A DNA stretch of 44,950 bases from a virus. This document shows positions 23,788 to 44,683 of this stretch, one piece after another. The notes under the pieces are model-generated. The model was not told where the DNA came from. It saw only the letters and a program-made list of their open reading frames with translations, and ran no database searches. The stretch lies in IMG/VR virus record IMGVR_UViG_3300034069_000108, positions 1 through 44,950 of that record, one strand, 5' to 3'. Every line of letters begins with the position of its first letter. Positions within the stretch are counted from its first letter, which is position 1. The position numbers and the translations under genes were made by a program.

Positions 23788-23788
23788 G

Positions 23789-24167: not shown

Positions 24168-24171
24168 TTAG

Positions 24172-24615
24172 CTATTCCTTCACAACTTCAACGTACTCAA
24201 TTCCAGCTTCCTCGAAGAAAGCTTTTGACTTCTGCATTGAGTGACGCCACCGATTAAGAAACTCTTCGGTTGCCTCGTACTCGCAGACTACGCGGGTTAT
24301 CCCTGCTTGGACAACATGTAAAGCACACCCGCAACAAACAGGCCGATTAACATAGAGAAAAGAACCAGCCACGGGTTGAAATCTTGCATTGAGGATCGCA
24401 TTGACTTCAGCATGGATCACCCTTTCGTACTTGCGTTCTCGGTCTTCGTAAAGATAGGCGTCGTCCCTCATGCCTTTCGGAAAGCCGTTAAAGCCAAGGG
24501 AAACAACATGCTTGTCCTTAGCGATAACAGCCCCGACCTGTGTGGAAGGGTCCTTAGACCAAGTGGCTACTTCATTTGCTAGATGAAGAAACCTGAGGTC
24601 CCACTTACTTAGCAT
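24172..24615 (-). CDS. dCMP (deoxycytidylate) deaminase
   Basis: Zinc motifs HAEVNAIL and PCCGCALHVVQAGI. The ATG at 24615 overlaps the upstream stop; the ORF track gives 24642. Confidence 0.88.
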   Translation of the reverse strand: MLSKWDLRFLHLANEVATWSKDPSTQVGAVIAKDKHVVSLGFNGFPKGMRDDAYLYEDRERKYERVIHAEVNAILNARFQPVAGSFLYVNRPVCCGCALHVVQAGITRVVCEYEATEEFLNRWRHSMQKSKAFFEEAGIEYVEVVKE

Positions 24616-24994
24616 CGGCAGTCTTACGAATGTGAAGTTCAAGAGCAGCCAGAGCGCCCCAAGCCTCGTGAGCTAGGTGTTCAAGCTTGCTGTCAGGATC
24701 GTTGGTTTCACCCATTGCGTCCTTAAGAGCGTGCCGGAACTGTGCGTCCTTGTACCGTTCGTACCCTTCCTCCACCCCTTCCCATCCGTTCCAAGCGTAC
24801 TTCTTTGCACCGAAGGTTGAGATTTCGGCAACAGCCCAGAGGGCTCGGGGGAAGTAGTTGATAACGCCACGCCAAACAGAAGGCTTTCCTGCGTCGTACT
24901 TAACGGCCCCAGTCCCGATGAGAGAGGGGTCGTCAGTCGTGTAGTCGCCGTTGCTGTAAGTGGTAGCGGGCAATGTTTCGATCACGTCGTCCAT
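24605..24994 (-). CDS. dATP/dGTP pyrophosphohydrolase-like protein (DUF5664 / MazZ-like N-terminal domain family)
   Basis: KYDAGKPSVWRGV...AVAEISTFGAKKY...RYKDAQFRHAL...DSKLEHLAHEAWGALAALE matches my memory of that family's consensus. Confidence 0.6.
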   Translation of the reverse strand: MDDVIETLPATTYSNGDYTTDDPSLIGTGAVKYDAGKPSVWRGVINYFPRALWAVAEISTFGAKKYAWNGWEGVEEGYERYKDAQFRHALKDAMGETNDPDSKLEHLAHEAWGALAALELHIRKTADAK

Positions 24995-28303: not shown

Positions 28304-28855
28304 TTAGAAAGGCACTTCGTCGTCAAGGTCTTCCTCAGCCAGACCGAAGTCCTTCTTGAAGTCGTCCTTTACAGGGGCCTTCTTAGCCGGAGCCTTAGCG
28401 CCAGCGTCGCCCTTGTCCATACCCCCGAACTCCGAAGACTGGTACTGGACCAGCTCCGTAATGCGAAGAGCGACAGGATACATACCCTTCTTCTTACCAA
28501 CTCCGTAGTCACGAATGTCAAGCTTCACGTCGCCATCACTGCCGTTGCCGATCAGCTTGGTCTTGTCCCACTCACTGTCCTCAGCGTCGTAAAGACGGAT
28601 CGGAGGGTTGGGGTTGCCGTCCTTGTTGAACTCGGTCTTGCGAAGAACCAGAACCTTACGGTCGGGGTTTTCCTTGTCCTTGAGTCGGTCGGTCAGTTTG
28701 TGCTGCTTGAGAACCTTCACGCCGTCTTCATTCGGCTCGAACTCGAAGGTCCACTCTCGGGCGTCTCCGCCGTAATTAGGCCGGGGCTCACCCGTAACCT
28801 TTGCCCAGTAAATCTTACCAGAGATAAACACAGTTGCTTTGTTATTAGCGGGCAA
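28304..28855 (-). CDS. ssDNA-binding protein, T7 gp2.5-like architecture (183 aa)
   Basis: Acidic C-terminal tail ending EEDLDDEVPF (gp2.5 ends ...DEDGDF). Sits in the T7-like replication module. TTG start at 28855, 7 nt after AAGGAAG; the ORF-track N-terminus (to 28978) is actually the tRNA gene. Confidence 0.65.
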   Translation of the reverse strand: MPANNKATVFISGKIYWAKVTGEPRPNYGGDAREWTFEFEPNEDGVKVLKQHKLTDRLKDKENPDRKVLVLRKTEFNKDGNPNPPIRLYDAEDSEWDKTKLIGNGSDGDVKLDIRDYGVGKKKGMYPVALRITELVQYQSSEFGGMDKGDAGAKAPAKKAPVKDDFKKDFGLAEEDLDDEVPF

Positions 28856-28898
28856 AATCTTTCTTCCTTTTAGTTTTTTCTTAGACGTTTCTGTGAAA

Positions 28899-28974
28899 TG
28901 GCCCCAGACCAAGGACTCGAACCCTGCTAGGCGGTTTTGGAGACCGCTGCATCGCCCCTTAATGCTTGTCTGGA
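28899..28974 (-). tRNA. trnW: tRNA-Trp (anticodon CCA), 76 nt with encoded CCA end
   Basis: Hand-folded cloverleaf. Acceptor TCCAGAC/GTCTGGG, D stem GCAT/ATGC, anticodon stem GCGGT/ACCGC with loop CTCCAAA, T arm CAGGG-TTCGAGT-CCTTG, then discriminator G and CCA. Confidence 0.85.
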
Positions 28975-28976
28975 AC

Positions 28977-29024
28977 ATTGCTTCCGCCGACTCGAACGGC
29001 TTTAGGTCTTCCTTACAGAAGCAA
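28977..29024 (-). ncRNA. tRNA-like minihelix (acceptor stem plus T arm only), 2 nt upstream of tRNA-Trp
   Basis: TTGCTTC-16 nt-AGCCG TTCGAGT CGGCG-GAAGCAA-T. The 7-bp acceptor-like stem is perfect and the T loop is canonical. There are no D or anticodon arms. Confidence 0.3.
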
Positions 29025-29759: not shown

Positions 29760-31577
29760 TTAGTGAGTTTCTGCCCATGTCAACCCTTGCTTTGCTTCTC
29801 CGGTGAGAGGAACGTTGAGGTTAAGCTCTTCGCCAGCTTGTTGAATACTAAGTACACTGAGTCGAGCGTGCTCAGCGGCGTCGTCAGGTGCCACGTCGTA
29901 CTGCCATTCGTCGTGAATGTCTCCAACCTTGAGGCTGTCCAGTCCTGCTCGCTTAATGTGCTTTGAAAGAAGGACGGCTCCAAGTGCCATGACTCGGGCA
30001 CCTGAACCTTGAAGCTTGTAGTTAAGGGCTGCATGTGGACTTGGACAGATGACCCCTGCCCCGTCCACAAGCCAAACCCGTCCGGTTTCTTGCTCAGCTT
30101 GACACTCCGTAATTAGGTCCTGCACACCCAGCCGGTCCAGAAAGAGCTGCCTTATTCGGGCACCTTCCTTGTTACTGACCTTGAGGGTCTTGGCAACCTT
30201 AGGTCCTCCTGCACCATAAAGCGCTGCGTAAATAAGGGTTTTGGCATTAGGTCGAGTAATTCCAACCAAGTCCGCATTGAACTGGTGAGGATCACCATTT
30301 ACGACCTGCTCTGTGAAGTCTGCCCGGTTAAGGAAATGAGCGAGCATTCGGAGTTCAAGACCTGCTGCGTCAGTTCCAACAAGAACTCTTCCATGTCGTG
30401 CAGTCCATAAATCTCGTGCCTCATATGTAAAGTACCCGTCTTCTCCTCGAAGAACCACTCCGTCTTTTGAGGTGCGAACTGCGGGAATGTTGGCCGTGTT
30501 TGGGGCCTGATGTCTGAACCTGAGGGTATCTGCAACGAATAGCTTACCGTGAATGCAAGAGTCGGCTTCATTCCAGTTCTCCAACCAAGTGTTAATCATG
30601 TTGGCCCTGCCGTTGACCGACATCCACTTGGTGATTAGTGCCACCTCAGGAATGCCAGACGCTTCGGCAAACGCAACAAGAGACTTTTCAGTTACCTTTG
30701 GCTGACCTTCTGGATGAGCCTTGGACTTTGGGGTTCGTTCTTCAGCCACCCACCCCAGTGCTTCTAGCTTTTCTGCTCGCTGCTTGGGGCTTCCGATGTT
30801 GAAGGGGACGTCTTCGAAGGCGGTGTAGGTTCGTCCGTCAGGGCTGACTTCGACTCGATAGCGTTCAAGGTCTCTTTGATAGATGACACGTTGCTGACCA
30901 GATCGAGTAAAACAATCTCCAGTGCGAACTTCTCGTCGCTCGGCTGGAAAGGCTCTTCGGATTTCATCTTGAAGCTCCTCTTCTCGTTTGCGTAGCTGTT
31001 GGTAAAGCAGCATGGCTCGCGGGCCGTCGAAGTGAAAGCCATTGATCTGCTGCCGATGAAGGATGGTTGTGATGTTGTGTTGGATGTAACAGGTACGTTC
31101 GCTGAAGCCCACCTTGTTGAGGACCTTGACGATGCGTCGGAACAGTTCGGCGGTTACTCGAACGTCCTGAGCACAGTACCTAATCATTTCGTCCGAAAGG
31201 TGGGTCCAGTCGTTGAACTCAAACTTCGGAAAGCCAATCCTGCCGCCCCACTCTCCGAGGCTGTGACCTCCCGGAATGGAAGGATGGTAAAGCATACAAA
31301 GGATCAGAGTGTCCACAACCTTAGACACGCTTAGCTTTGTCTTGGCCAGCTTGTTAAGCTGAGGTGCGTCAAATTTCACGATGTTATGGCCAACGTAGAA
31401 AGACCCTGCGGTTGCCGCAAAGAAGGCCCTAATTTCGTCGAGGGTTGTACACGTTCCGGTTTCTCCCGTCCATATATTCTCCCAGCACATAACCCAGACA
31501 ACAGTTGCGTCAAGGTCGTCGGTCTCAATGTCGATGGCGTAGTAGTCTTGGGCCTGCGTTTCCCAGTCTAGGTACAT
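29760..31577 (-). CDS. family A DNA polymerase with an N-terminal 3'-5' exonuclease domain (605 aa)
   Basis: Exo I YAIDIETDD. Motif A GTDAAGLELRMLAH, motif B RPNAKTLIYAALYGAG, motif C GDIHDEW. Confidence 0.93.
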   Translation of the reverse strand: MYLDWETQAQDYYAIDIETDDLDATVVWVMCWENIWTGETGTCTTLDEIRAFFAATAGSFYVGHNIVKFDAPQLNKLAKTKLSVSKVVDTLILCMLYHPSIPGGHSLGEWGGRIGFPKFEFNDWTHLSDEMIRYCAQDVRVTAELFRRIVKVLNKVGFSERTCYIQHNITTILHRQQINGFHFDGPRAMLLYQQLRKREEELQDEIRRAFPAERREVRTGDCFTRSGQQRVIYQRDLERYRVEVSPDGRTYTAFEDVPFNIGSPKQRAEKLEALGWVAEERTPKSKAHPEGQPKVTEKSLVAFAEASGIPEVALITKWMSVNGRANMINTWLENWNEADSCIHGKLFVADTLRFRHQAPNTANIPAVRTSKDGVVLRGEDGYFTYEARDLWTARHGRVLVGTDAAGLELRMLAHFLNRADFTEQVVNGDPHQFNADLVGITRPNAKTLIYAALYGAGGPKVAKTLKVSNKEGARIRQLFLDRLGVQDLITECQAEQETGRVWLVDGAGVICPSPHAALNYKLQGSGARVMALGAVLLSKHIKRAGLDSLKVGDIHDEWQYDVAPDDAAEHARLSVLSIQQAGEELNLNVPLTGEAKQGLTWAETH

Positions 31578-31590: not shown

Positions 31591-33228
31591 TTAGTCTTTA
31601 GAGTACATTTCGAACTCGTTACCGGCAGCGGAGCCCCCTTTCTCAAACACGTCAGAAAGCTCCTTAGACAGCTCTTCCAGCACGCCTGTGACTTCGTTGT
31701 ACCAGAGGTAGCAGGCAGGGCCAGTTCGTCCGCAAAAGCGGTTCTTCTCGACGATTAGATGGGTTACATTACGACGCCACGGATCGGGGTCCGTCTTGTC
31801 ACGATGCAGCTTAACAACAATGTTGGCGATCTGTTCGGGACCCGCAGACCCACGAATTTCACCAGCACGATTGACGTGAATGACAGCCCCAACCCAGACG
31901 TTGAGGTTCATACACAGCATCTTCAGCTTGGTGCTGATTTCATCGAGTTGCTTTCGCTCGTCTCCACTATGATCTGACACAACGATGCTGAGGTGATCCA
32001 GCACAATATAGCTACACCCGAGTGCGGCCATATGTCGAATCTTAGCGAGAACAGCGTCGACGTCGTTAGCACCAAAATGGTCCCAAATAACCACCCGACG
32101 ATGGTTGATGACTTTGTCAAAGTACTCTTTCAACTCGGCCTCAGTACGATCCGTGTCGGGAAGATGGTAAGGCTTCTTAGCCTCAACAGACATCAAGCCC
32201 ATAATCGTGTCGTAGTTTGGCTCTTCGAGGTGAAGAATGCCGACCCCTTCTCCGGCTTCAATCAGCTCAGGGTTCATCAAAAGACTGTGTTCGATGGCCT
32301 TCATTACGGAGGTCTTACCAACACCAGTCGCAGCCGTGAACAGCATAACCTCAGACTTGCGAAGCCCGTAAGTCATATGATTCAAACCGGCAAACGGAAG
32401 CGGAATGCTTTTCGGAACCTTGTGGTTGATGACCTCCTCCCAGAGGTCCTGACCGATCTTCAAACCGTCGGGCATGTAGGCAGGAGCGCGGAACCATTCG
32501 TCCACGTACTGCTTTTCCATGCCCTTCATCAAGTAGTCGTTTGCGTCCTTGGCGTCCTTCAGCTTGAGGATGTGGACCTTGCCGGGCTCAAACAGTTGGG
32601 CGATCTGATTAGCCGCCTTCTGTCCGGGCTCGTCATTGTCCATGCAAACAACGATCTTTTCGAAGCTGTTCAGATATTCAAAATTATCCGCACAGTTTTT
32701 CTTTGCTTCCGAAGCCGACTTAACAGAAACGCAAGGGTATCGCGAGCCAGTGAGCTGGAATCCGGCGAGGGCATCACACTCACCTTCCACAACGGTAATA
32801 GCTTTACCACCTGCCGGGAAGAGTTGCTGACCAAAGAGAGTTCCTGCTTGAACATCACCCTCCCAGTAAAAAGCCTTCTCACCTTTACGACGCACCTTGT
32901 TGGCGACGTGGGCTCCGTTCTCATCGAAATAAGGATAAACATGACCAGCAGGACTCTGTGGGTTGGTGTTGACCGTGACCTTGAACTTGTTGACAGCCCC
33001 AGCAGAAATGCCCCGGTCCTTGATGGCGATCTGTTCACCACCCGGAAGCGGGGTAAGTTGCCTGTCTGCTGCGTGTCGGACTTCGTGCTGGTCTGAAATA
33101 ACTGTGGTTCCTTTGCCGTTGCCAGAATGAAAACCACAAACAAAACAATGCTCGTGGTCTTCGTAAACTGCGAGGCCGTCGGACGAACCGCACTCCCCGC
33201 ACTTGGTATGTTTGATGAACTTACTCAT
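31591..33228 (-). CDS. bifunctional primase-helicase (T7 gp4-like)
   Basis: Zn finger CGECGS...CFVCG, TOPRIM VVEGECDALA...DNDEPG, DnaB-type Walker A TAATGVGKTS, Walker B IVLDHL. Confidence 0.93.
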   Translation of the reverse strand: MSKFIKHTKCGECGSSDGLAVYEDHEHCFVCGFHSGNGKGTTVISDQHEVRHAADRQLTPLPGGEQIAIKDRGISAGAVNKFKVTVNTNPQSPAGHVYPYFDENGAHVANKVRRKGEKAFYWEGDVQAGTLFGQQLFPAGGKAITVVEGECDALAGFQLTGSRYPCVSVKSASEAKKNCADNFEYLNSFEKIVVCMDNDEPGQKAANQIAQLFEPGKVHILKLKDAKDANDYLMKGMEKQYVDEWFRAPAYMPDGLKIGQDLWEEVINHKVPKSIPLPFAGLNHMTYGLRKSEVMLFTAATGVGKTSVMKAIEHSLLMNPELIEAGEGVGILHLEEPNYDTIMGLMSVEAKKPYHLPDTDRTEAELKEYFDKVINHRRVVIWDHFGANDVDAVLAKIRHMAALGCSYIVLDHLSIVVSDHSGDERKQLDEISTKLKMLCMNLNVWVGAVIHVNRAGEIRGSAGPEQIANIVVKLHRDKTDPDPWRRNVTHLIVEKNRFCGRTGPACYLWYNEVTGVLEELSKELSDVFEKGGSAAGNEFEMYSKD

Positions 33229-34926: not shown

Positions 34927-34954
34927 ATTATACCACAGATTACGAATCTGTCAA
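34927..34954 (-). promoter_or_regulatory. consensus sigma70 promoter (TTGACA-16 nt-TATAAT with an extended TGn)
   Basis: The reverse complement reads ttgaca gattcgtaatctgtgg tataat. Confidence 0.75.
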
Positions 34955-34957: not shown

Positions 34958-35233
34958 TTAAATTACGTCATTGAGGTCGTCGTCCGTCAGGGCCCAAGGA
35001 AGGTCCTTGAAAACCTGACGCTGAAGACGGGCAATGAGAAGGTACTCACGGAGGTGTCCGCTGCGACGAAGAAAGAAGAAGTCGCCAAGGGCTTCCATCT
35101 CGTCATCGTAAGCCAGATGGACGTCCCACTTGTCGTCAATCTCAAGCTGGTCACGAATTGCTTTGTCACCAACACGAGAAAGAAGAACGAACTTCTTGAC
35201 GAGATTGTTCTCAAGAATGACCTGAGTTGCCAT
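34958..35233 (-). CDS. hypothetical protein, 91 aa; last gene of the amidoligase operon
   Basis: ORF track. 15 nt downstream of the ATP-grasp stop. Confidence 0.65.
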   Translation of the reverse strand: MATQVILENNLVKKFVLLSRVGDKAIRDQLEIDDKWDVHLAYDDEMEALGDFFFLRRSGHLREYLLIARLQRQVFKDLPWALTDDDLNDVI

Positions 35234-35248
35234 CTGACTTACCTTAGC

Positions 35249-36022
35249 TTAGAGAAAGCGCTGAAAAGCTTCGACGTACTTCTCAGCCGTCCGCTCTTCA
35301 AGGCCACATGCCGTGTTGATTTCGAGGACGTAAGCCTGCTGTTCACGCTCGTTCCACATGACGTCCACACCACCGAAGTCGAGGTTCAAGGCTGCTGCTG
35401 CGTCAACTGCCTGCTGGATCACGTCGGCCGGAACGTCCTCGACTTGGACTTCAACAAACGCGAAACCGCCAGCAAGGTTGCGAACCTGCCAGTTAGGGTT
35501 TTCGTTGTCGAGCTTGCGGGCCTTACGCTGTACGAAGAAGGCACCCCCATTGAGAACATGAACACGGAACTCGTCCTTCTTCTTGACGTACTGAGTGTAA
35601 AGCGGTGCGTCGACCACCTCGTCCGGCGTGTTGGCCATAACGATGCCCGCACCACTGTGGCCGTTCAGCTTGGTGCGACAGACCACGACCGTGCCCCAGC
35701 CTACCGCAACAGCCCGCTCCTGACTAAACTCTGGTACTCGGACACCGGCTTCCTGAAGCGCATTGAACGAAGTGAGCTTGCACGACGCTGCCTTAACGGC
35801 TTCAGGGGCGTTGAGCCGGGTGGCGGCCGGAAAAACAGGACAACCAGAAGCACCCCAGTTAATAACCAAGTCACCAGCTCGGGGGTTGTACTTACTTCCG
35901 ACATGCTTGAGGACCTTTCCGCCCATTGCTTCGGCCAGCTTCTTCGCACTGGCACTGCCCTGATTGTAAGGATAAACGCGGACCACGGGACCACGTGCAA
36001 CCTTGTTCTGCTTCTTAATCAT
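35249..36022 (-). CDS. ATP-grasp ligase (RimK-like, phage type; 257 aa)
   Basis: Short pre-ATP-grasp region, then VVCRTKLNGHSGAGIVM, YVKKKDEFRVHV and FGGVDVMWN..AYVLEINTACGL, which resemble the ATP-grasp core and Mg-binding E-N. Confidence 0.8.
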   Translation of the reverse strand: MIKKQNKVARGPVVRVYPYNQGSASAKKLAEAMGGKVLKHVGSKYNPRAGDLVINWGASGCPVFPAATRLNAPEAVKAASCKLTSFNALQEAGVRVPEFSQERAVAVGWGTVVVCRTKLNGHSGAGIVMANTPDEVVDAPLYTQYVKKKDEFRVHVLNGGAFFVQRKARKLDNENPNWQVRNLAGGFAFVEVQVEDVPADVIQQAVDAAAALNLDFGGVDVMWNEREQQAYVLEINTACGLEERTAEKYVEAFQRFL

Positions 36023-36051
36023 CGTACTTCACTCCAAACTTGTGTGTTCTA

Positions 36052-37284
36052 TCAGTCTTCTTCGTCGAGGTCGTCACGAAGCGGGACAAGAGCTTCGAAG
36101 TCGACAGGACGGGCGTGCTGGGGTTCGTCCCATGCCTGAAGAAGACGGGCGCGTTCCTGTGCTGCCTGCATCATGCGTTCTTCCGCGTTCCGTACGTTAG
36201 CCGCTGCCTCAGCAAAACCGTCACCGAGGCGTACGTTCACCATTCCTTCCGGGTTGAAAAGAACACGTCCCGGAGCCTGACGAACACGGTTGACACGCGC
36301 TGCCGGACGGCCTCGCTGCGCCGCAAGAAGTGCTGGATCGACATCGAGAGCCGGTTCTTCATCACCAGCGAACGAGGCCCAAAAGTCGCGACCCCTAAGA
36401 CGCACCTGATCGAACTCGGTCCCGATGCGGTAACAGAGCATCTGCACCATGCGAAGACCTTCGTAAATCGAACCGCTGATGAGGTCGTCATTCAGGTTTG
36501 CCGTCAGAGCGTCGTAAGACTTGCGGCTGAACACTTCACGAAGAAAGCCCTTCGGCGTCTTGACCGAAATGTCTTCGATCAGGGTGGCCGGGTTCTTCAT
36601 CGTGTAACAAGCGTACTGACAGAACTCGTTCAGAATGTCGAGCCAAGCCAGAATGTCGGTCTTGTTGTCAAGCCCACGCATTGCACGGAACTCGACGGTG
36701 CCGAACTTGTTGATCGACGCCATGTTAAGCGAACAGTACCGCTGGTCCTCACGAAGAGTGCCGAACGACTGATGCTTGAACACTGCTTCCATCACCCAGT
36801 TGACCTGCTCTTCGGCGTGACGACTCGAAAGACAGAACAGGTTGCCCTTGCGGTCTTCACCACAGTAAGCGTCCAGAATGTCCTCAAGGATCGTGAACAG
36901 AATGAACAGATTGACGAGCTGGTACGCGCTCTTGTCGCCCATGTTGAAGTGGACGTGGAACGAAGTGCGATTCGAACACACGAGCTTGGCCTTGCGACCT
37001 TCGAAGTAGGTGAACAGCTTTTCGACACGGTCCACGCACTTTTCGTACTTGACAGGCCCGTTGAAGACCCACTCACAGCACGAGCCATGATGAGCACGAA
37101 GAGACCCGTCGTTGTGCGGAGCCCAGTCCTTCATCAGCTCAACACCTGCCTCCGACCCGTCGAAGTCCACGTTGCGACCTTCGCACTCCAACTCAAGGCC
37201 GAACACGTCTCCCTGCTTTGCACCACGACCCATACGAGTGACTGCCGGAACAGGGCTATTCAGAAAGTCTTGCAGCTTGGTCAC
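36052..37284 (-). CDS. glutamine-synthetase-like amidoligase (Amidoligase_2 family; 410 aa)
   Basis: FGLELECEG...HNDGSLR...CEWVF...SFHVHFNMG and FGTVEFRAMRG resemble the family core. Confidence 0.8.
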   Translation of the reverse strand: MTKLQDFLNSPVPAVTRMGRGAKQGDVFGLELECEGRNVDFDGSEAGVELMKDWAPHNDGSLRAHHGSCCEWVFNGPVKYEKCVDRVEKLFTYFEGRKAKLVCSNRTSFHVHFNMGDKSAYQLVNLFILFTILEDILDAYCGEDRKGNLFCLSSRHAEEQVNWVMEAVFKHQSFGTLREDQRYCSLNMASINKFGTVEFRAMRGLDNKTDILAWLDILNEFCQYACYTMKNPATLIEDISVKTPKGFLREVFSRKSYDALTANLNDDLISGSIYEGLRMVQMLCYRIGTEFDQVRLRGRDFWASFAGDEEPALDVDPALLAAQRGRPAARVNRVRQAPGRVLFNPEGMVNVRLGDGFAEAAANVRNAEERMMQAAQERARLLQAWDEPQHARPVDFEALVPLRDDLDEED

Positions 37285-37451
37285 TTCGTGTTACTCCTTA
37301 GATATTCTTCTAGAGCTTTTTCAGCCGTCTCTCTGGCCGTTTCTGCCCTAATTTCGTCCATACAGTTGTTGCCTCTGCTGGAAAGAATTTCCCAGACAGC
37401 AGCTTTTCTGTACTCGGCCATCAGTTGCTTTAAGCGAGAGGAATCCGACAT
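37281..37451 (-). CDS. hypothetical helical protein, 56 aa
   Basis: ATG at 37451, 7 nt after GGAGG. Overlaps the upstream gene by 22 nt and the next gene by a GTGA junction. Confidence 0.5.
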   Translation of the reverse strand: MSDSSRLKQLMAEYRKAAVWEILSSRGNNCMDEIRAETARETAEKALEEYLRSNTK

Positions 37452-38098
37452 TCTTCTGCCTCCTGCTTCAGAAAGTGGAACTTCGGGGGAAGTCGTAGCG
37501 CCTTGTCGTCCTTGAGAGCGATGCCGCACTTGACACCCTTGTGCATCAGAAGCAGTGCTTCCAAGTCGTGGTCGATTGCCAGAGCAAAGGTCCGCGAAAT
37601 GGCCACCGAACTGTGTTCCGCGTCACCAAGAAGCTCGCCCACGTCAGCAAACGTCGGGTACTTGCCGTTCACCATGTCGACGAAGCCCTGAGAAGCGATA
37701 ACCGACGCAAAGGAAACGTCGTCGTCCCGGTTGCCACGAATGTTCGTCAGCTTAAGCGTCTTGGAGTTGAGCCCCTGCTGATTTTGACGGACCGGGCTGC
37801 GGCTGGCGTAAAGAGCCTTGCCCTTGAAGTTAAGGTAGCCCATCTTGAACGGCGCAAGGTCGAAGTTGCGAGACGAAAGGTACTTACGCACTTCCTTCTG
37901 CTCCGGGCCGCCAAAACCACGAGTCTGGTAAGGCAGTTCGACGAAGAAGACGCGAGCCACTTCCTTCTTGTCTTCGGCTCCGTCAATTTCCTTGACACGA
38001 GTGATGTAAACGGGCTTGCCGTCGTACATGACCACCGTGTTGGCGAGACGGAAGTTGACCTCTTCCAGCGTCTCGTACTTGTCACCCTTGAGGCTCAT
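37430..38098 (-). CDS. conserved-looking hypothetical protein, 222 aa, inside the amidoligase operon
   Basis: ORF track; AAGGAAG SD. I recognise no motif. Confidence 0.75.
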   Translation of the reverse strand: MSLKGDKYETLEEVNFRLANTVVMYDGKPVYITRVKEIDGAEDKKEVARVFFVELPYQTRGFGGPEQKEVRKYLSSRNFDLAPFKMGYLNFKGKALYASRSPVRQNQQGLNSKTLKLTNIRGNRDDDVSFASVIASQGFVDMVNGKYPTFADVGELLGDAEHSSVAISRTFALAIDHDLEALLLMHKGVKCGIALKDDKALRLPPKFHFLKQEAEECRIPLA

Positions 38099-38116
38099 GG
38101 GTACGCTTCCTTGTGC

Positions 38117-38950
38117 TTAGAGTTCGCGGGCTGCGAGGTAGGCTTCACGGCCACCGCACTTGGCGAGGTAGTCCTTCAGATAGTACTCAGCCGAGTAGGT
38201 GTCGGACTGGTTGATGATCTGCTGAAGAACGTCTTCGCCGACGATGTTGAGTGCCCGCTTGCCAGCCATCAGGTCCTGCACGGCCTTGACGGTCTGATTG
38301 AAGACGAACTTCATCCGCTTTTCGTTGAGCAACCACGCATTCGAAAGGACGCGGTACTCGACACCGTACGACTTCGGGCGGAAGGCTCCGGCCTTGCCGT
38401 ACATGCCGCGGCGCTTCGTGTCCTTGTCGAACATCAGGCTGGGCAGGCCGAGGTAAGCGTCGAGCTGCTTGACCAGAGTGGCACACCGAATCATGTGGTC
38501 GTCGGACGTGGGGTCAGCACCCTGACAGAAGCCGATGTGAACGTGACCGCTGGCCGTACGCATCGTGGTCTGATTGTCCGGTCGCGGGTTGGCACCGAGG
38601 GTGTAAGCGTTGAAGTCGGGCTCGCAGCCCAGCTCCTTGGCTTCGTCCGGCTGAGCACGGAAGTGATTGCCGTTGAACCGCGCCGAAGGAACGATAGCGA
38701 AGTTGTAGTCCGGAACCATGTCCTGCATCTGCTTCATGACCGTGGTGATGTTGGTCACAAAGTCGTCGGCGTTGTCCACGGCGTCGATGTTGAACTCAAG
38801 TGCCATGCCGTCGACCTGAACCGCGCCCTTGTCGACCTTGTGCGGGTTCGCCTTGGTGCCGGGAATCAGGCCGTGTGCGCTGCGGAACTGGCCTTCCTTG
38901 TTGGTGACGAACAGTTCAGGGTCGGCACCGATGGTGATCTGAAGAGTCAT
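38117..38950 (-). CDS. phiEco32-type COOH-NH2 ligase (GCS2-like carboxylate-amine ligase; 277 aa)
   Basis: N-terminal ITIGADPELFV and the following layout match my memory of the COOH-NH2_lig family. AAGGAA SD. Confidence 0.78.
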   Translation of the reverse strand: MTLQITIGADPELFVTNKEGQFRSAHGLIPGTKANPHKVDKGAVQVDGMALEFNIDAVDNADDFVTNITTVMKQMQDMVPDYNFAIVPSARFNGNHFRAQPDEAKELGCEPDFNAYTLGANPRPDNQTTMRTASGHVHIGFCQGADPTSDDHMIRCATLVKQLDAYLGLPSLMFDKDTKRRGMYGKAGAFRPKSYGVEYRVLSNAWLLNEKRMKFVFNQTVKAVQDLMAGKRALNIVGEDVLQQIINQSDTYSAEYYLKDYLAKCGGREAYLAAREL

Positions 38951-38986
38951 GTTGAAGTTATTCCTTGCTAACAGAAAAATGCGGTT

Positions 38987-40264
38987 TTAATGGATGGAAA
39001 CAGCAGCCTTGGGCTCTTCATGAGCCGGATGGGAGCCGTCGAGGCACTTCTTGCAGACCGGACGACCCGGAGCCAACCACGCAAACCTGTCGTTCACGCC
39101 GATGTGTTCCAGTTCGCACCAGCTACAACCCGCGTCGAGGTCGTCACGAAGCTGATTCAGGGTCAGAGCCTTGCCCTGATACCCTTTGTAAGTCTTCCGT
39201 GCGTCGTCGATCGAAACAACCTTGTTACCCGTACCGTCGGGCAGGGCCAGCGTCGATCCAGTTTCGCTCTTCGGGGGTTGCTTCTCGCCAGAATCGCTTG
39301 TCGGGGTCCCAGATGGCGAAGTCGAAGTCAGCGGGGGAGTTCCTTTCTCCACCCACATTCGGCGGGTCGAGTCGTAAACCTTCCCCTCCAGCGTCCGGTT
39401 GCCGTACGACCCCGTTATCGGATGTGTGCTGCTCTGGCTGCTTGTTTGAGTCGTCGACGTTCCTTGCGGGTGAGGGTTCGTCGTGTTGTTGGGTCCACCC
39501 CGTCCACCAGTCGGTTGAAAAAAACCAGCGGTCTGCTTGCCGACCACGCCTCCTTCACGCTCGATGGTCAGCTCTTCGTTGTACTTGGTCGGAGCCGGAA
39601 TCTTGTAAAGCGTGTCTTCCGTGAAGGCGTAAACCTTGTCTTCGTGGAGCTTCAGATCGGACCGGCTGGTCGCAACCTTAATCATCCAGATTTCCGAAGC
39701 CCAGAACAGGGTCTTCTTGTCGTCCGACCACGCATAGAACAGGGTGCGTTCCTTGTTACGAACGATCCGCAGTTCTTCGGCGATGTGGTCGTAGTACGTG
39801 AGAGCCCACGCACCTTCGGCCTTGGCGATGGCAGCCTTGACGCCGTTGATGGCGATTTCGTTGTACAAGGCTTCAGAGTCCGTCCCGAAACGATTGTGGT
39901 CGGTCAGGGCATGCTTGTTCTTGAGGGTGCCGTTGTGAGCGCCAACCACCAAGCAACCCCCGTCCTCGTCGTCGATGGCGAAAGGATGAGCGTTGGTCTT
40001 GATGTTCTTGCCGATGGTGCCTGCACGGTTGTGGCCGATCCAGACGAAGTCGTTCAGCTTGAGATGTTCTGCCAGCTTGGGACCTTCGGTGAACTCGTAA
40101 CCCGGAACCGTCTGCTTGAGGATGGCAGTGTCCGCATTGTGACGGATGGCAGCGACGCCGGTCGAGTCACGACCCCGAAACGTGTCGAGGTAAAGCATGG
40201 TGGCGAGGCAGTCCTTGTGCTTCTGAAGCATGTTGGACGACATGATGCCGACGAGACCGCACAT
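38987..40264 (-). CDS. class-II (Ntn) glutamine amidotransferase with an S/T/P/G-rich linker and a C-terminal zinc ribbon (425 aa)
   Basis: Begins MCGLVGI (catalytic Cys2). RGRDSTG, HNR and GAHNG are GATase-II-like. The linker spans about aa 250-340. C-terminal CSWCE...CKKC. Confidence 0.85.
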   Translation of the reverse strand: MCGLVGIMSSNMLQKHKDCLATMLYLDTFRGRDSTGVAAIRHNADTAILKQTVPGYEFTEGPKLAEHLKLNDFVWIGHNRAGTIGKNIKTNAHPFAIDDEDGGCLVVGAHNGTLKNKHALTDHNRFGTDSEALYNEIAINGVKAAIAKAEGAWALTYYDHIAEELRIVRNKERTLFYAWSDDKKTLFWASEIWMIKVATSRSDLKLHEDKVYAFTEDTLYKIPAPTKYNEELTIEREGGVVGKQTAGFFQPTGGRGGPNNTTNPHPQGTSTTQTSSQSSTHPITGSYGNRTLEGKVYDSTRRMWVEKGTPPLTSTSPSGTPTSDSGEKQPPKSETGSTLALPDGTGNKVVSIDDARKTYKGYQGKALTLNQLRDDLDAGCSWCELEHIGVNDRFAWLAPGRPVCKKCLDGSHPAHEEPKAAVSIH

Positions 40265-40265
40265 G

Positions 40266-40424
40266 TTACTTAATCTCCTTCTTCTGGACAGTCACCACTT
40301 CCCGTGAGACCAGTTCGAAAAGACGACGCCCTGCGTAAAGACCGCTTTCGGCGTTAGCGAGGACTTCCTTCTCGGTCTTCTTTTCCGTAAAACCGTACGG
40401 AGTTTCGTAAGTAAATTTACGCAT
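40266..40424 (-). CDS. hypothetical protein, 52 aa (MRKFTYETPYGFTEKKTEKE...)
   Basis: ATG at 40424 after AAGGG. TAACATG junction to the GATase gene. Confidence 0.45.
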   Translation of the reverse strand: MRKFTYETPYGFTEKKTEKEVLANAESGLYAGRRLFELVSREVVTVQKKEIK

Positions 40425-40441
40425 GTTCTTCGCCCTTTCGA

Positions 40442-41128
40442 TTAGCAGGCAGGAATGACGTAGCTGTCGACCAAGTCGAGGAAAAAGTCTCGACACTCGC
40501 CGAAGGAAAACTCCGGATGAGGCTGGAAGCAGAGCGACCGAGTGGACTGATACCAGCACGCTTCCACGTCGGCATTTTCTTCCGGCTGTTCGAGGCGAAT
40601 TTCCTCACTGGCCGACTTCTTCACCGTGGCGAGGGTGGCAACGGCGAGAACTTCCGCGTCATCCGCCGGTCGCATCATCTGGTGATGGGTGGAAGTCATG
40701 TTGTGACGAACAGTGCCGTCGCGAAGGTCGACCACCGAATGGCCTCCGGTACGAGCGTGGTTGTTGACGTCCTGCCACAGCCTGCCGCCGTTCATCACGG
40801 TCAGAAACTGCGACCCACGACAGATGCCGACCATGGGCTTCTTGGACGCCACCGCGTCGATGTAAACCTGCTGTTCGACTTCGTCCCGCGCCGTGTTGAA
40901 GAACGTTTCCGCAAGGGCCTTTTCGCCGTACAGGGCAGGGTCAACGTCCGCACCGCCGGTGAAACAGATGATGTCAGCGTCTGCGACCGAAGTTGCACCC
41001 TTGAAGCCAGCGTCGAAGAACATCTTGATGTACTGGAACCCCCCGCCAACGACGAGAACACGCAGGTCCATGACTTCACGGGCCATTGCGGCTTCGTTGG
41101 CTTTCTTGACTTGTTCTTCGGTAAGCAT
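40442..41128 (-). CDS. class-I GATase-like / peptidase C26 (gamma-glutamyl hydrolase, PuuD-like; 228 aa)
   Basis: Nucleophile elbow VGICRGSQFL and CFQPHPEF (His-Glu). ATG at 41128 after AAGGAAAAC. Confidence 0.8.
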   Translation of the reverse strand: MLTEEQVKKANEAAMAREVMDLRVLVVGGGFQYIKMFFDAGFKGATSVADADIICFTGGADVDPALYGEKALAETFFNTARDEVEQQVYIDAVASKKPMVGICRGSQFLTVMNGGRLWQDVNNHARTGGHSVVDLRDGTVRHNMTSTHHQMMRPADDAEVLAVATLATVKKSASEEIRLEQPEENADVEACWYQSTRSLCFQPHPEFSFGECRDFFLDLVDSYVIPAC

Positions 41129-41217
41129 TTGTTCGTTTTCCTTGTTGTTAACTAAAGAGGTTGAGAAGCACATGAGCGGCAAAATTACCTAAAAGAAGGT
41201 AAAAAAGCACTTGACTT

Positions 41218-42213
41218 TTACAAATCGACCTCAAGAAAGACAGTGTCTTTGTTCGGCTTCGGCGCAGCACGTTTGCGAGCCGGTTTCTTTGCGACTTCAG
41301 CCACGGGAAACACGGCCTCGGCGTCGTCAATGCCAAGCTCCTTCTGCCATGCGAGGGCTGCCGCGACCATTTCTTCGGCCGTTGCGCCGTTGCCGGTGAT
41401 TTCACCGCCCCAGCCGTCCGACTTCTTGAAGGGCTTGCAGAACTTGGTGGCCTTGTCCCGAGCCTTCACTAGAAAGGCAGGCGGCAGGTCGTTCTTGGGC
41501 TTGGTCGACTTGAACACCGTGGCGGTGTCCGTGGCTTCGCGGTTGACTTCACAGTTGACAAGCCCCGCAATGTCGTACTCAGCGTTGTGCCAGCCGAACA
41601 CCGAAACGTGACCGTTGACGTCCTTGGCACTGAACACTGCACCCTTGTACGTGGTAATGTACGTACAGATAAGAACGGCGAGAAGAGGCTTGACACCGCC
41701 TTTCGTGAGGGTCAGCCACGCGTCGAGGGCCTGCTCACCTTCGGTCGTGTACCGCAACACCTTGCACATCCACATGACTTCGGCTTCGGTTGCGCCGTCC
41801 GGGCCGCAGAGGATGATGGCACCGTGATTGGTGAGGGAGTCGGGGTCGTCACGATTGACCACGTACTTGCCGAACGGGCAGTCGTCCGAAGCCATCCACA
41901 GAATGATCGCGTCGGTCGCTTCCGCCGAAGCCTTGGACATGGCGTGCTTGTGACAGGTGAGAACGAGAAAGTTTTCCGCGTTCTTTCTGTAGTCCGCAGG
42001 AGTTGCCCAGCCGTAACCTGCGTGGGGGTCCTTGCAGAAGTTCCGGAATCCTGCGGAAACCCAAGCATGGCAAGCGGAATGTGCCTGACCGAACTTTTCG
42101 CCCTTGAGGTTCATCATGGCCCCCATACAGCGTCCGCCGTCCCAAGCCTTGGTCGTGGACGCCAGAAGCGCCTTGGCCTTGTCAACCACTTCCTTGGTTA
42201 CAAACTGTTCCAT
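41218..42213 (-). CDS. hypothetical protein, 331 aa, inside the amidoligase operon; basic K/R/P-rich C-terminal tail
   Basis: ORF track, which starts at a GTG at 42219; the ATG at 42213 is preferred. I recognise no motif. Confidence 0.75.
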   Translation of the reverse strand: MEQFVTKEVVDKAKALLASTTKAWDGGRCMGAMMNLKGEKFGQAHSACHAWVSAGFRNFCKDPHAGYGWATPADYRKNAENFLVLTCHKHAMSKASAEATDAIILWMASDDCPFGKYVVNRDDPDSLTNHGAIILCGPDGATEAEVMWMCKVLRYTTEGEQALDAWLTLTKGGVKPLLAVLICTYITTYKGAVFSAKDVNGHVSVFGWHNAEYDIAGLVNCEVNREATDTATVFKSTKPKNDLPPAFLVKARDKATKFCKPFKKSDGWGGEITGNGATAEEMVAAALAWQKELGIDDAEAVFPVAEVAKKPARKRAAPKPNKDTVFLEVDL

Positions 42214-42239
42214 GTTCACTTCACCTTGCTGAATTGTGC

Positions 42240-42383
42240 CTACCGGATTTGACCAGTCCGCTTGTAATGACGAAAGTCGTCCTTGACCTGACGAGGTGTC
42301 TGGCCGTAAGACGTCATGAAAAAGTCCTCCAAGGTCAGCGTGCTGCGTGACTTACGGAGGACGGACGCACATTTGGAAGCCAC
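42240..42383 (-). CDS. small basic ORF, 47 aa from the GTG, or 25 aa from the ATG at 42317 with a strong GGAGGA SD
   Basis: Hand translation: ..MTSYGQTPRQVKDDFRHYKRTGQIR. Fills the gap between two operon genes. Confidence 0.3.
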   Translation of the reverse strand: MASKCASVLRKSRSTLTLEDFFMTSYGQTPRQVKDDFRHYKRTGQIR

Positions 42384-42386
42384 TCT

Positions 42387-43055
42387 TCACCACCCTTTCA
42401 TCGGTTGGTCCATGTAAACATTGACCTGCCTGCGAATTTCGTTGTGATGCGGTCGACCATTTTCGTAGCCAGCGTTCCACGTCAGACGACCGAACCAGCG
42501 CCACCCTTTCCGGACGCATTTGGAGCCCCTGTGGAAGGCGTTGTGGTCGAAGTGGACCAACTGGTTGCTGGGAGCCGAAACGAGGCTGAGAGCCCCTTCT
42601 TCGACGTCCTGATTGACCAAGTCGTTCCAGACTTCGTAAACGTTAGGGCCGAACAGTGGAACCTCGGGGTAGGACTGCTTGCCGACCGCAAATTGGGTGG
42701 GCGAAATGTCTCCGTTGACCAACGCAAGGACCATTGTCGCCGTGTTGGCGGGGTCTTCGTAGTTGGGCTGACCGTCCGACCGGGACCGAGGGACGTCGTC
42801 GTGGTGCCATCCCGGAATGCAAGGCCACCAGCCCGGCATCAGCATGTGAACCCGACTGTCGAAACAGGCATTGACCTGCATCCGTTCGTTGCCGAAAACC
42901 GCTTCCAGAAAAGCCTTGGTGATCGGTCCACCGTTCTCGTGGGCGAAGGCCGGAGTTGCGGAGAAGAACATGGGCTCGTCCTTCACCGTCTTTTCGTCGA
43001 ACTCGGGAAGCTTTTCACCGAGAAAGACCTTGCTGTCAAATTCAAACATCTTCAT
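42387..43055 (-). CDS. putative Fe(II)/2-oxoglutarate-type (cupin-fold) oxygenase (222 aa); first gene of the operon
   Basis: IPGWHHDD (HxD) and, about 95 aa later, FDHNAFHRGSKCVRKGWRW (distal His, Arg). Start taken at the ATG at 43055. Confidence 0.55.
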   Translation of the reverse strand: MKMFEFDSKVFLGEKLPEFDEKTVKDEPMFFSATPAFAHENGGPITKAFLEAVFGNERMQVNACFDSRVHMLMPGWWPCIPGWHHDDVPRSRSDGQPNYEDPANTATMVLALVNGDISPTQFAVGKQSYPEVPLFGPNVYEVWNDLVNQDVEEGALSLVSAPSNQLVHFDHNAFHRGSKCVRKGWRWFGRLTWNAGYENGRPHHNEIRRQVNVYMDQPMKGW

Positions 43056-43439
43056 GGTTAAAAGCCTTGCTAAAAGGTCGGAGTCCACTGGGACGGAGTT
43101 GCACCGCCACGTTTGAGTCTGCACTGACGCTTGCTGTGTCTTTTTATGTACCAAACCTGCCACCTGCCGTTTAAACGCGCCCGGTTAGCAAAGGAAGACC
43201 GTCAGGTTATTCGAAACGCCAAGCTGTTGCCAGAGGAAAGAAGGGCAGTCAAACACAGGAGATCAGGCTGACCAAAATGAACCACGTTCATGATGCGCCT
43301 TAGGCCGTGCCGGGACCACTGTTGGGCTAACGTACTTGCAAGTCAGCCAGCTATGCAGCCAGCCTACGTTTGCTTACTTCGTGGACGTAATATTCCAGCC
43401 CTGCTGAATGGCTGCCCACCGTTCCTCTGAATTTTTTAC

Positions 43440-43467
43440 TTGACTTTTTTGACTTTTATGTTATAAT
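43440..43467 (+). promoter_or_regulatory. near-consensus sigma70 promoter (TTGACT-16 nt-TATAAT) pointing antisense into the minus-strand genes at 43502-44143
   Basis: ttgact tttttgacttttatgt tataat. TTGACTTTT is tandemly duplicated. Confidence 0.65.
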
Positions 43468-43471
43468 ACTA

Positions 43472-43506
43472 TTAAGTGTTGCAGGCCAGTAAACCCCTCC
43501 CTCAGT
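43472..43506 (+). promoter_or_regulatory. conserved 5' leader element, copy 2 (TTAAGTGTTGCAGGCCAGTAAACCCCTCCCTCAGT)
   Basis: Begins 4 nt after the -10 box, as in copy 1. Overlaps the stop codon of the minus-strand ORF 43502..43594. Confidence 0.5.
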
Positions 43507-43594
43507 AGCGTTTATTACTGATCCACTTACCTGCTATGATAGCTAGGGGGATCGAGGCAACCGCCCAGATCACAATGTAGAGAAAGATTTTCAT
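43502..43594 (-). CDS. small membrane protein, 30 aa (MKIFLYIVIWAVASIPLAIIAGKWISNKRY)
   Basis: Hand translation. GGAG SD. One TM helix. Confidence 0.45.
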   Translation of the reverse strand: MKIFLYIVIWAVASIPLAIIAGKWISNKRY

Positions 43595-43606
43595 TTTCCT
43601 TACTCC

Positions 43607-44143: not shown

Positions 44144-44172
44144 TTGACTTCCTTACCATTTTAATGTATAAT
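44144..44172 (+). promoter_or_regulatory. near-consensus sigma70 promoter (TTGACT-17 nt-TATAAT) driving the second HNH gene
   Basis: ttgact tccttaccattttaatg tataat. The downstream AATAGGGAAAGG resembles the leader of the other HNH gene. Confidence 0.75.
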
Positions 44173-44194: not shown

Positions 44195-44683
44195 ATGACT
44201 ATGGAATACAAGACCAGCCTCGCTAAACGAGAGGCGCAGAAGAAGTACCGTGAAGCTAACCGCGACTACTATGTCGAGTACGCTAAAAGGTACAACCCCC
44301 GTTACTGCGACATGAATCGCGAGCAACGCAAAGAGTACGCCAAAGCCTACCACCTGAAGAAAGTAAACACCTTTGAAGGACGCACCCTGAAGATTTTCCA
44401 AGGAGCAAAAGGCAGGGCTACCAAAGCTGGAATTGAATTTACGATCGCTTACGAGGACATTGATTGGGTTAATGTCTGTCCTCTTCTTGAGATTCCTATC
44501 GTCTACGACTACGCTGGCGCATTGCAGTGGGACTCACCGTCGCTGGACCGTGTAGACAGTACGAAAGGTTATGTCAAGGGGAATGTTCGAGTGGTTTCAC
44601 GCCGAGCTAACACCCTCAAAAACTGCGGGACAGTTGACGAGATTGAAATGCTTGGCCGAAACATTCGGGGATATGCGTCCTAA
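44195..44683 (+). CDS. HNH/His-Me-finger (endonuclease VII-like) homing-endonuclease-like protein, 162 aa; paralog of 1816..2304
   Basis: VCPLLEIPIV...SPSLDRVDSTKGYVKGNVRVVSRRANTLKNCG. Same length and motif order as the paralog. Reverse orientation to its neighbours. Confidence 0.75.
   Translation: MTMEYKTSLAKREAQKKYREANRDYYVEYAKRYNPRYCDMNREQRKEYAKAYHLKKVNTFEGRTLKIFQGAKGRATKAGIEFTIAYEDIDWVNVCPLLEIPIVYDYAGALQWDSPSLDRVDSTKGYVKGNVRVVSRRANTLKNCGTVDEIEMLGRNIRGYAS

Follow-up and report, generated by a model that had tools for sequence, protein, structure and literature searches.

We analysed a stretch of viral DNA, the IMG/VR record IMGVR_UViG_3300034069_000108, in which twelve closely packed open reading frames (ORFs) on the minus strand encode, among other proteins, a set of enzymes that form and cleave amide bonds. 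The stretch, which we refer to as the window, is a complete metagenome contig of the Joint Genome Institute (JGI) with a length of 44,950 bp. Its gene block is not a new system, but the copy carried by an uncultured podovirus of a phage-only cassette that has already been described. Comparison with related loci defines a core of seven parts, which comprises a phiEco32-type COOH-NH2 ligase, an Amidoligase_2 protein, a RimK-like ATP-grasp ligase, an N-terminal nucleophile class-II glutamine amidotransferase (GAT-II), a Peptidase_C26 protein (C26) and two uncharacterized protein families, here called u331 and u222 after their lengths in the window. We propose that the cassette constitutes a cytoplasmic, multi-step, glutamate-centred build-and-trim pathway, and assign this reading a probability of roughly 0.55.

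For the five enzymes, an earlier note on this DNA, made from the sequence alone, had proposed families, and all five assignments hold, each with a Pfam match over the gathering score. The 228-aa protein matches Peptidase_C26 (3.6e-21), the 425-aa protein GATase_6/GATase_7 (9.6e-13, over its N-terminal ~230 aa only), the 277-aa protein COOH-NH2_lig (PF14395, 4.2e-11) and the 410-aa protein Amidoligase_2 (1.8e-8), while the matches of the 257-aa protein to RimK (7.9e-5) and ATP-grasp_3 (8.7e-5) lie barely over the respective gathering scores. The PHROGs agree with Pfam and give much stronger matches (2.4e-89 to phrog_3815 for the COOH-NH2 ligase, 1.2e-47 for the amidoligase and 4.5e-82 for the ATP-grasp protein). 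The general picture of a phage operon that joins ATP-dependent carboxylate-amine ligases with amidotransferase and amidohydrolase folds is thereby supported.

The catalytic residues that the earlier note had singled out for GAT-II, C26 and the ATP-grasp protein are likewise present and conserved. When each enzyme was aligned with 16-22 homologues from related loci, the C26 triad of Cys103, His204 and Glu206 was found in all 16 sequences, residues D10, E12, E52, H136, H138, E198 and R200 of the COOH-NH2 ligase in 22/22, residues E31, E33, E35, D59, H110, H112, E198 and R200 of the amidoligase in 18/18, and residues R116, E151, R153, D220, E234 and N236 of the ATP-grasp protein in 19/19. GAT-II starts with MCGLVG and possesses Cys2, Arg80, Asn111-Gly112 and Asp129, of which R80, N111-G112 and D129 are kept in 21-22 of the 22 homologues. 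Its C-terminal half (38987-39560) consists of a low-complexity linker rich in Ser, Thr, Pro, Gly and Gln and a CxxC...CxxC zinc ribbon; the four cysteines of the ribbon are kept in the homologues of PA11, PaP3 and Kuravirus NJ01, and the linker varies in length and sequence. We found no synthase (acceptor) domain in this protein, as the GATase models match residues 1 to ~230 only.

Comparison with NCBIfam points to the kind of bond on which these enzymes may act. The best matches of C26 are gamma-glutamyl hydrolases, namely gamma-glutamyl-CDP-amidate hydrolase and PuuD, both far under their cut-offs, and its nearest PDB sequences are 3FIJ and 7D4R, described as 'probable glutamine amidotransferases'; we predict that it is a gamma-glutamyl-X hydrolase. 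For the ATP-grasp protein, the nearest NCBIfam families are MvdC, MptN and RimK, again all far under the cut-offs, and the amidoligase has no match in this collection. The earlier note had counted three different ligase folds in the block. This count is not supported, as COOH-NH2_lig and Amidoligase_2 have a motif plan in common, ExE...HxH...E[FY]R. Both families are reportedly placed in the glutamine-synthetase-like (GS-like) superfamily, by Iyer and colleagues in 2009 as well as by Pfam, which hhalign could not confirm here: the alignments between the two were not significant, and common ancestry is therefore not demonstrated.

The cassette recurs across several phage lineages. Its signature gene, the COOH-NH2 ligase, has matches in 319 of 50,697 GenBank phage records, with identities to the window protein of 47-58% in Zobellviridae (PA11, TC6, O4, CW02 and CVT22; best 53-58%), ~38% in the LUZ24/PaP3/tf-like Bruynoghevirus and ~35% in Kuravirus (the phiEco32 group), Privateer and Aeromonas phages; further matches come from Vibrio, Sinorhizobium, Leptolyngbya and Cellulophaga phages. 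The kinship to the phiEco32 gene set (Iyer et al., 2009), suggested in the earlier note, is upheld. In PA11, the order is C26, two hypothetical proteins, GAT-II, COOH-NH2 ligase, a hypothetical protein, amidoligase and ATP-grasp, followed after further genes by a primase-helicase and, further on, a DNA polymerase. Kuravirus NJ01 has two unknowns, the COOH-NH2 ligase, a 205-aa unknown, the amidoligase, GAT-II and the ATP-grasp protein, with a gamma-glutamyl cyclotransferase (GGCT) further along. PaP3 carries an equivalent gene set with a GGACT protein (6e-24), UFV-P2 is annotated alike with a GGCT instead of C26 (PMC3890496), and a similar set is found in an oyster Zobellviridae phage and in metagenomic relatives. 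The backbone of the phage in the window is distant from cultured phages: its primase-helicase is ~40% identical to those of SIO1-like podoviruses, and a megablast search with the 8.2-kb block gave no match among phage records.

To quantify these associations, we assembled a set of 55 related loci, many of them on truncated contigs, with IMG/VR, GenBank phages, public assemblies and the GTDB genome collection as sources, and searched their ORFs with hidden Markov models (HMMs) built from our own alignments. The COOH-NH2 ligase was detected in 51 of the 55 loci, GAT-II in 50, the amidoligase in 45, the ATP-grasp protein in 44, C26 in 41, u222 in 35 and GGCT in 13. C26 or GGCT is present in almost all loci that are not truncated, and some loci have both; in LUZ24-like phages and Kuravirus, GGCT stands in place of C26. 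As C26 and GGCT are of unrelated folds, their interchange speaks most strongly, among the computational results, for a gamma-glutamyl bond that is first formed and later cleaved off again, and it pins the chemistry of the cassette to gamma-glutamyl amides. The PuuA/PuuD-like logic that the earlier note had proposed gains support from it. The same comparison corrects the note's view that the window adds an oxygenase-like gene, a PuuD-like hydrolase and two large unknowns to a smaller core: C26, u222 and u331 are recurrent, standard components, whereas the oxygenase-like gene and the tiny ORFs are unrelated neighbours.

A scan with the COOH-NH2 ligase profile through one genome for each of 185,579 species yielded 33 loci, all of them on contigs of metagenome-assembled genomes (MAGs) that are mostly phage-sized (45-55 kb), plus one scaffold of 1.1 kb. 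None of these loci showed a recognizable chromosomal or prophage context, in a scan that was seeded by a pattern and limited in sensitivity.

Several loci depart from the common layout. On the MAG and IMG/VR contigs L013, L037, L041, L042 and L044, we observed a second architecture without a separate u222 gene, in which GAT-II comprises 490-700 aa, the amidoligase comprises 440-610 aa with an N-terminal extension of 160-290 aa, and C26 and GGCT are often both present. A fusion of u222 to these large amidoligases or GAT-II proteins was considered and rejected, since neither the u222 HMM nor the u222 motif matches them, including the extension. The 170-kb, jumbo-phage-sized IMG/VR contig L018 has two COOH-NH2 ligase and two GAT-II genes together with C26 and ATP-grasp in one cluster (3253-10924), which looks like a duplicated or expanded cassette. 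In locus L002, the cassette ATP-grasp gene is immediately followed by genes for an RNA ligase (PF09414) and a DUF3307 protein (14823-15898), and Kuravirus NJ01 has a tRNA nucleotidyltransferase a few kb downstream of its cassette; these neighbours hint at a possible link of the cassette to RNA or translation.

Later literature that the earlier note overlooked already describes this seven-gene cassette (Duhaime, 2017, PMC5498523; reportedly also Hardies, 2013). There, it is known as a 'gamma-glutamyl amide / unusual peptide bond' operon of phiEco32, LUZ24/PaP3/tf, PA11/TC6, CW02 and phiRIO-1, and is hypothesized to change the cell surface and to block superinfection (PMC5498523). It has also been described elsewhere (PMC4819975) and was named a 'putative peptidoglycan modification module' in 2025 (PMC11945000). 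In agreement with the note's statement that no product has been established, papers from 2023-2025 still term its function unexplored or 'putative' (PMC10580990, PMC11945000), and we found no experimental test of the cassette in the literature searched.

In the build-and-trim pathway that we favor, the two GS-like ligases and the ATP-grasp ligase would each turn a carboxylate into an activated acyl-phosphate and couple it to an amine, and at least one of the resulting bonds would be a gamma-glutamyl amide. GAT-II appears to retain the residues that grip the alpha-amino and alpha-carboxylate groups of glutamine or of a gamma-glutamyl group, and could either release ammonia from glutamine for use on a carboxylate that a ligase has activated, or hydrolyze a gamma-glutamyl amide. 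C26 would strip the gamma-glutamyl group from an intermediate or from the product, a role that GGCT would take in the cassettes of LUZ24-like phages and Kuravirus, so that gamma-glutamate would serve as a transient handle. u222, encoded between the genes of the GS-like ligases, and u331, whose gene is often translationally coupled to that of C26, may be cassette-specific partner, scaffold or substrate-binding proteins. None of the twelve block products has a predicted signal peptide or membrane segment, and the cassette proteins are predicted to be soluble and cytoplasmic. Several points weigh against this pathway. No substrate, product or phenotype has been established for any member of the cassette. 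Every enzyme scores far under the cut-off of any characterized NCBIfam equivalog, so that the specific chemistry is based on family-level analogy, and a PDB sequence search found no solved or characterized relative of the COOH-NH2 ligase or of Amidoligase_2. Furthermore, a glutaminase and a gamma-glutamyl hydrolase activity of GAT-II are indistinguishable from sequence, and the roles given to u222 and u331 derive from gene order and conservation.

The alternative put forward in the literature is the remodelling of peptidoglycan precursors, in which the ligases would introduce unusual peptide linkages into murein precursors in the cytoplasm and the hydrolases would trim these, and the altered wall would block superinfection or ready the cell for lysis. 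The murein stem peptide does contain a gamma-D-glutamyl bond, and murein precursors are the substrates of ATP-grasp ligases such as Ddl as well as of MurT/GatD, a pair of a GATase and a ligase; in NCBIfam, however, no equivalog of the Mur-ligase, Ddl, Fem or MurT/GatD type is matched by a cassette protein. The absence of signal peptides and membrane segments from all seven cassette proteins leaves cytoplasmic precursors as the sole possible targets. The genomic context fits poorly as well, since the cassette lies amid early and replication genes rather than lysis genes and is confined to virulent phages, whose short infection cycles leave little time for newly made wall to matter. The proposal recurs in three papers (PMC5498523, PMC10580990, PMC11945000), which credit it to Iyer 2009 and Hardies 2013, but it is a pure analogy for which we found no experiment in the literature searched. 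We consider a role in peptidoglycan remodelling unlikely.

For the two protein families without assigned function, the earlier note had suggested AlphaFold modelling and Foldseek searches, and these gave confident models but no PDB match. u222 has 113 close homologues, which are 50-73% identical among themselves and share the family-wide motif GYxN...RxPxRxxKQGL. It sits after the COOH-NH2 ligase and before the amidoligase in all lineages except PaP3, where the correspondence is positional only, and an iterative jackhmmer search recovers NJ01_101 of Kuravirus as a relative (1e-21). Its model, with a predicted local distance difference test score (pLDDT) of 89.7, depicts a beta-rich chain of small beta-barrels. 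Nearly all of its top Foldseek matches in the PDB are to EF-P/eIF5A, although the best of them is not significant (E-value 0.045, probability 0.47, template-modelling (TM) scores of 0.2-0.33). When u222 was compared with E. coli EF-P by hhalign, a single run aligned 69 columns collinearly at a probability of only 1.2%; a broader u222 profile failed to reproduce this alignment, and a sequence-profile search of the PDB yielded no EF-P or other meaningful match. We have accordingly dropped the claim of an EF-P/eIF5A fold, which was based on one weak Foldseek signal and this marginal alignment, and regard the similarity as an unconfirmed lead.

These features of u222 bear on another explanation, namely that the cassette modifies a protein. 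In a manner reminiscent of RimK or PafA, the ligases would add glutamate or a peptide to u222 itself or to a host protein such as a translation factor, and the hydrolases would reverse or edit the modification. u222 is conserved, bears no enzyme signature, lies between the two GS-like ligases across lineages and has an invariant exposed loop (RxPxRxxKQGL), features that would make it a plausible substrate, and the cassette ATP-grasp protein is RimK-like. Peptide tagging was reportedly considered for such ligases by Iyer and colleagues in 2009. EF-P and eIF5A, the most frequent Foldseek matches of u222, are factors with unusual amino-acid modifications, but this similarity is neither significant nor reproduced in the profile searches, and the u222 hairpin that would match the Lys34 loop of EF-P is variable. 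Moreover, there is no conserved small tag protein of the Pup type with a C-terminal Gln or Glu, as the small ORFs of the block are hypervariable or missing in relatives. Protein modification appears distinctly improbable to us.

The second family, u331, likewise yields a confident model (pLDDT 89.9, predicted TM score 0.88), which has no fold match in the PDB (best E-value 0.64). In the viral structure library BFVD, it resembles only uncharacterized proteins of cassette-bearing phages, namely of CW02 (E-value 2e-7, TM 0.58), CVT22 (E-value 9e-6) and the Kuravirus-like GAP52 (E-value 0.011, probability 0.99). Its invariant residues (C48, H49, N120, D123, K151, R154, E158, H202 and a DGWGG motif) suggest that u331 is an enzyme. 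We identified 58 close homologues and, in a library of 1.84 billion proteins, 172 cluster representatives, all of them ~260-350 aa long; the remote representatives carry no Pfam domain, and the search of the representative library returned no annotated or fused relatives. In an iterative search, u331 was found in 16 loci, in every case as the gene immediately preceding C26, which it often overlaps by 4 nt. No sequence homology to u331 was detectable in the upstream unknowns of PaP3 (orf49/50) and NJ01 (103/104), and the sole hint of its kin among the upstream unknowns of the Kuravirus type is the Foldseek match to the GAP52 protein. PDB sequence searches with u331, u222 and the oxygenase-like protein, singly and as profiles, returned nothing meaningful.

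A hypermodified DNA base, to which the ligases would attach glutamate, an amine or a peptide, was among the outputs that the earlier note had considered. The cassette indeed adjoins replication and nucleotide-metabolism genes, the latter encoding a dCMP deaminase, a MazG-like dATP/dGTP pyrophosphohydrolase and a nucleoside deoxyribosyltransferase-like protein in the replication arm (23026-24994), but none of ten replication-arm proteins scanned is a hydroxymethylase, 5-hydroxymethyldeoxyuridine kinase, transglycosylase or DpdA. In some viral contigs, amidoligase and GATase domains co-occur with thymidine-hypermodification genes (PMC8989533), and the zinc ribbon of GAT-II could bind nucleic acid. 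Phage DNA from cassette carriers is nevertheless readily cut: the DNA of the LUZ24-like phage U17 was cleaved by 11 of 16 restriction enzymes, which made it the most sensitive of four phages (PMC11945000), and RsaI, HpaI, EcoRV and SmaI fragments of phage tf DNA were used for its cloning, with HaeIII cutting this DNA as well (PMC3517423). Bulk DNA hypermodification by the cassette is unlikely on these grounds, and base modification as its purpose is, in our estimation, very improbable.

A further proposal is more specific and considerably more speculative. The cassette would then not be a cell-wall module but a phage-only pathway, in which two proteins of unprecedented fold, the Cys/His-bearing putative enzyme u331 that is coupled to C26 and the multi-beta-barrel protein u222, act with three ligases and two gamma-glutamyl-cleaving enzymes to attach an adduct, through a gamma-glutamyl link, to a universal target in the cytoplasm, which would be u222 itself or a host factor that acts in translation or on nucleic acids. 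We regard this proposal as doubtful; if true, it would represent a novel way in which phages direct the post-translational modification of proteins or the modification of metabolites. The question is of some consequence, as the cassette was first noted in 2009 and is carried by hundreds of virulent phages, among them the Kuravirus group of E. coli as well as LUZ24 and PA11, two Pseudomonas phages of relevance to therapy. The present instance is no easier to test than cultured carriers. Its comparison with them takes the oxygenase-like gene and the tiny ORFs out of the pathway, as detailed below, and argues against bulk DNA modification.

The ORFs of the block, which runs from 43055 down to 34958, lie where the earlier note had placed them (Table 1) and are separated by gaps of -22 to +89 nt. 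Of the junctions reported in that note, TAACATG between the 52-aa ORF and GAT-II and GTGA between the 56-aa ORF and the amidoligase are present, whereas an ATGA overlap between the listed genes is not. GAT-II, the COOH-NH2 ligase, the amidoligase and the ATP-grasp protein are encoded in one contiguous stretch (35249-40264). A consensus promoter directly past the 91-aa ORF starts the next transcription unit and thereby marks the downstream limit of the block. The block is located in the early/replication arm of the genome, upstream of the primase-helicase and DNA polymerase genes on the same strand, and PA11, PaP3, L004 and L024 are laid out alike.

Table 1. Features of the gene block and its surroundings in the window
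Feature	Position	Strand	Remarks
'Oxygenase-like' protein (phrog_1843)	42387-43055	-	222 aa; JGI gene call likewise 222 aa
Basic ORF	42240-42383	-	47 aa
u331	41218-42213	-	331 aa
Peptidase_C26 / class-I GATase-like thiol amidohydrolase (C26)	40442-41128	-	228 aa from ATG
Small ORF between C26 and GAT-II	40266-40424	-	52 aa
Ntn class-II glutamine amidotransferase (GAT-II)	38987-40264	-	425 aa
phiEco32-type COOH-NH2 ligase (type 2)	38117-38950	-	277 aa; cassette signature gene
u222 (phrog_11055)	37430-38098	-	222 aa
Doubtful ORF	37281-37451	-	56 aa
Amidoligase_2 (glutamine-synthetase-like)	36052-37284	-	410 aa
RimK-like ATP-grasp amino-acid ligase	35249-36022	-	257 aa
Acidic protein	34958-35233	-	91 aa; last gene of block
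Consensus sigma-70 promoter	34927-34954	-	TTGACA, 16-nt spacer, TG, TATAAT; 12/12 positions, extended -10
Primase-helicase	31591-33228	-	downstream of block
DNA polymerase	29760-31577	-	downstream of block
Near-consensus sigma-70 promoter	43440-43467	+	11/12 positions; directed away from block
Promoter-like site of HNH/endonuclease VII-like gene	44144-44172		
HNH/endonuclease VII-like gene	44195-44683	+	phrog_3322, 1e-28

The product of the first gene of the block was termed an HxD...H oxygenase-like protein in the earlier note, and the underlying pattern is real: H84-x-D86...H175...R186 (HHDD...H...RWFGR) is invariant in 34 homologues. A profile in support of the label was not found, since the protein alone has no match in Pfam, NCBIfam or PDB sequences, the 34 family members gave one DUF6445 match at 0.016 and seven matches to an unrelated model at 0.006 or worse, and their profile returned only noise against the PDB, with no match to a 2-oxoglutarate oxygenase or cupin. 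The PHROG assignment is firm (7e-54), and the family has 1667 homologues; its relatives come from T4-like phages of Aeromonas and Escherichia, from mycobacteriophages and from Gordonia phages, and no such phage is among the records that match the cassette COOH-NH2 ligase. Among the 55 related loci, the gene is present in a single one, the sibling contig L024. Because it is found in unrelated phages and missing from all related loci but this one, the gene is a neighbour and not a conserved part of the cassette, contrary to the place in the pathway that it had been given.

L024, whose block proteins are 86-99% identical to those of the window, also helps to judge the small ORFs. The 47-aa protein is identical in L024, with 2 synonymous changes in its ORF, and has no homologue in the other related loci. 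The slot of the 52-aa ORF is hypervariable, being occupied by a barely related 63-aa ORF in L024 and by unrelated ORFs of 57-221 aa in other loci. The 56-aa ORF is missing from L024, where a 31-nt spacer (L024 5528-5558) replaces a ~170-bp segment between flanking genes of 86-96% identity; it may be a doubtful gene or a recent insertion or deletion inside the cassette. By contrast, 9 of the codon changes between the 91-aa ORF and its L024 counterpart are synonymous and only 1, at the start codon, is non-synonymous, which indicates purifying selection and a real gene; weak homologues of it are found in L002 and L004.

Further observations concern the surroundings of the block. The ~550 nt upstream of it (43056-43606) contain no convincing ORF; a ~30-aa hydrophobic peptide is possible on the minus strand (~43594-43500), and a near-consensus promoter is located on the plus strand. 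Rfam matched no family in this region and none in the block. The 11-mer AAAAGTCAAGT occurs on the minus strand at 43438-43448 and 41209-41219. These positions fall within the largest two intergenic gaps of the block, one of which precedes the first gene while the other separates u331 from C26. A role as a phage promoter or regulatory site is conceivable, but the recurrence does not exceed chance, as 38 of 100 shuffles were equally good, and it may mean nothing. Three plus-strand ORFs of 491, 476 and 427 aa (36040-40273) lie antisense to the amidoligase, to the COOH-NH2 ligase and u222, and to GAT-II, respectively; they are most likely shadow ORFs that mirror the minus-strand genes, and have no independent support. 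Amid the minus-strand early genes, a plus-strand HNH/endonuclease VII-like gene with its own promoter-like site probably encodes a homing endonuclease. The sole tRNA of the window, a tRNA-Trp (CCA) in the replication arm (28899-28974), lies outside the block and is overlapped by an ORF (28304-28978) that is probably spurious.

Among known systems, the cassette ATP-grasp protein can be compared with RimK, the glutamate ligase of ribosomal protein S6, and with MptN and the microviridin ligases MvdC/D. It keeps the ATP and Mg ligands, and Pfam RimK and TIGR00768 are among its best matches, but its score of 27 bits falls far short of the RimK-family cut-off of 143, and it is ~257 aa long and is encoded without an S6-like or precursor-peptide substrate. 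A further parallel is provided by PuuA/PuuD of the E. coli putrescine utilization pathway and by PauA/SpuA of Pseudomonas, where a GS-like gamma-glutamyl-amine synthetase works alongside a gamma-glutamyl hydrolase of the C26 family. The pairing of a GS-like amidoligase with a Cys-His-Glu C26 enzyme is common to both, and PuuD is among the top NCBIfam matches of the window protein, although its 23.4 bits do not reach the equivalog level of 266. The cassette lacks oxidation steps of the PuuB/PuuC type, and its two further ligases, its Ntn GATase and its two phage-only proteins have no counterpart in that pathway.

A similar scheme is found in butirosin synthesis, with the ATP-grasp ligase BtrJ and the gamma-glutamyl cyclotransferase BtrG, and in ergothioneine synthesis, with the GCS-type ligase EgtA and the class-II GATase-like hydrolase EgtC. 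In both, an ATP-dependent ligase installs a gamma-glutamate that is later removed by a GGCT or an Ntn-GATase-like enzyme, which is mirrored in the cassette by the interchange of C26 and GGCT and by the adjacent genes for GAT-II and the COOH-NH2 ligase. This likeness is one of scheme and not of sequence membership, and the carrier protein, the pyridoxal-phosphate enzyme and the sulfur and oxidation enzymes of these pathways are absent from the cassette. The closest relative is the gamma-glutamyl amide operon of podoviruses. The window differs from it in its new phage backbone, in the possession of C26 rather than the GGCT of LUZ24-like phages and Kuravirus, in its sequence-recognizable u331 subfamily, and in its upstream end, where the unrelated phrog_1843 gene and small lineage-specific ORFs are found; it shares with it the same five enzyme families, their strand, their place upstream of the primase-helicase and DNA polymerase, and the order of COOH-NH2 ligase, ~200-aa protein and amidoligase.

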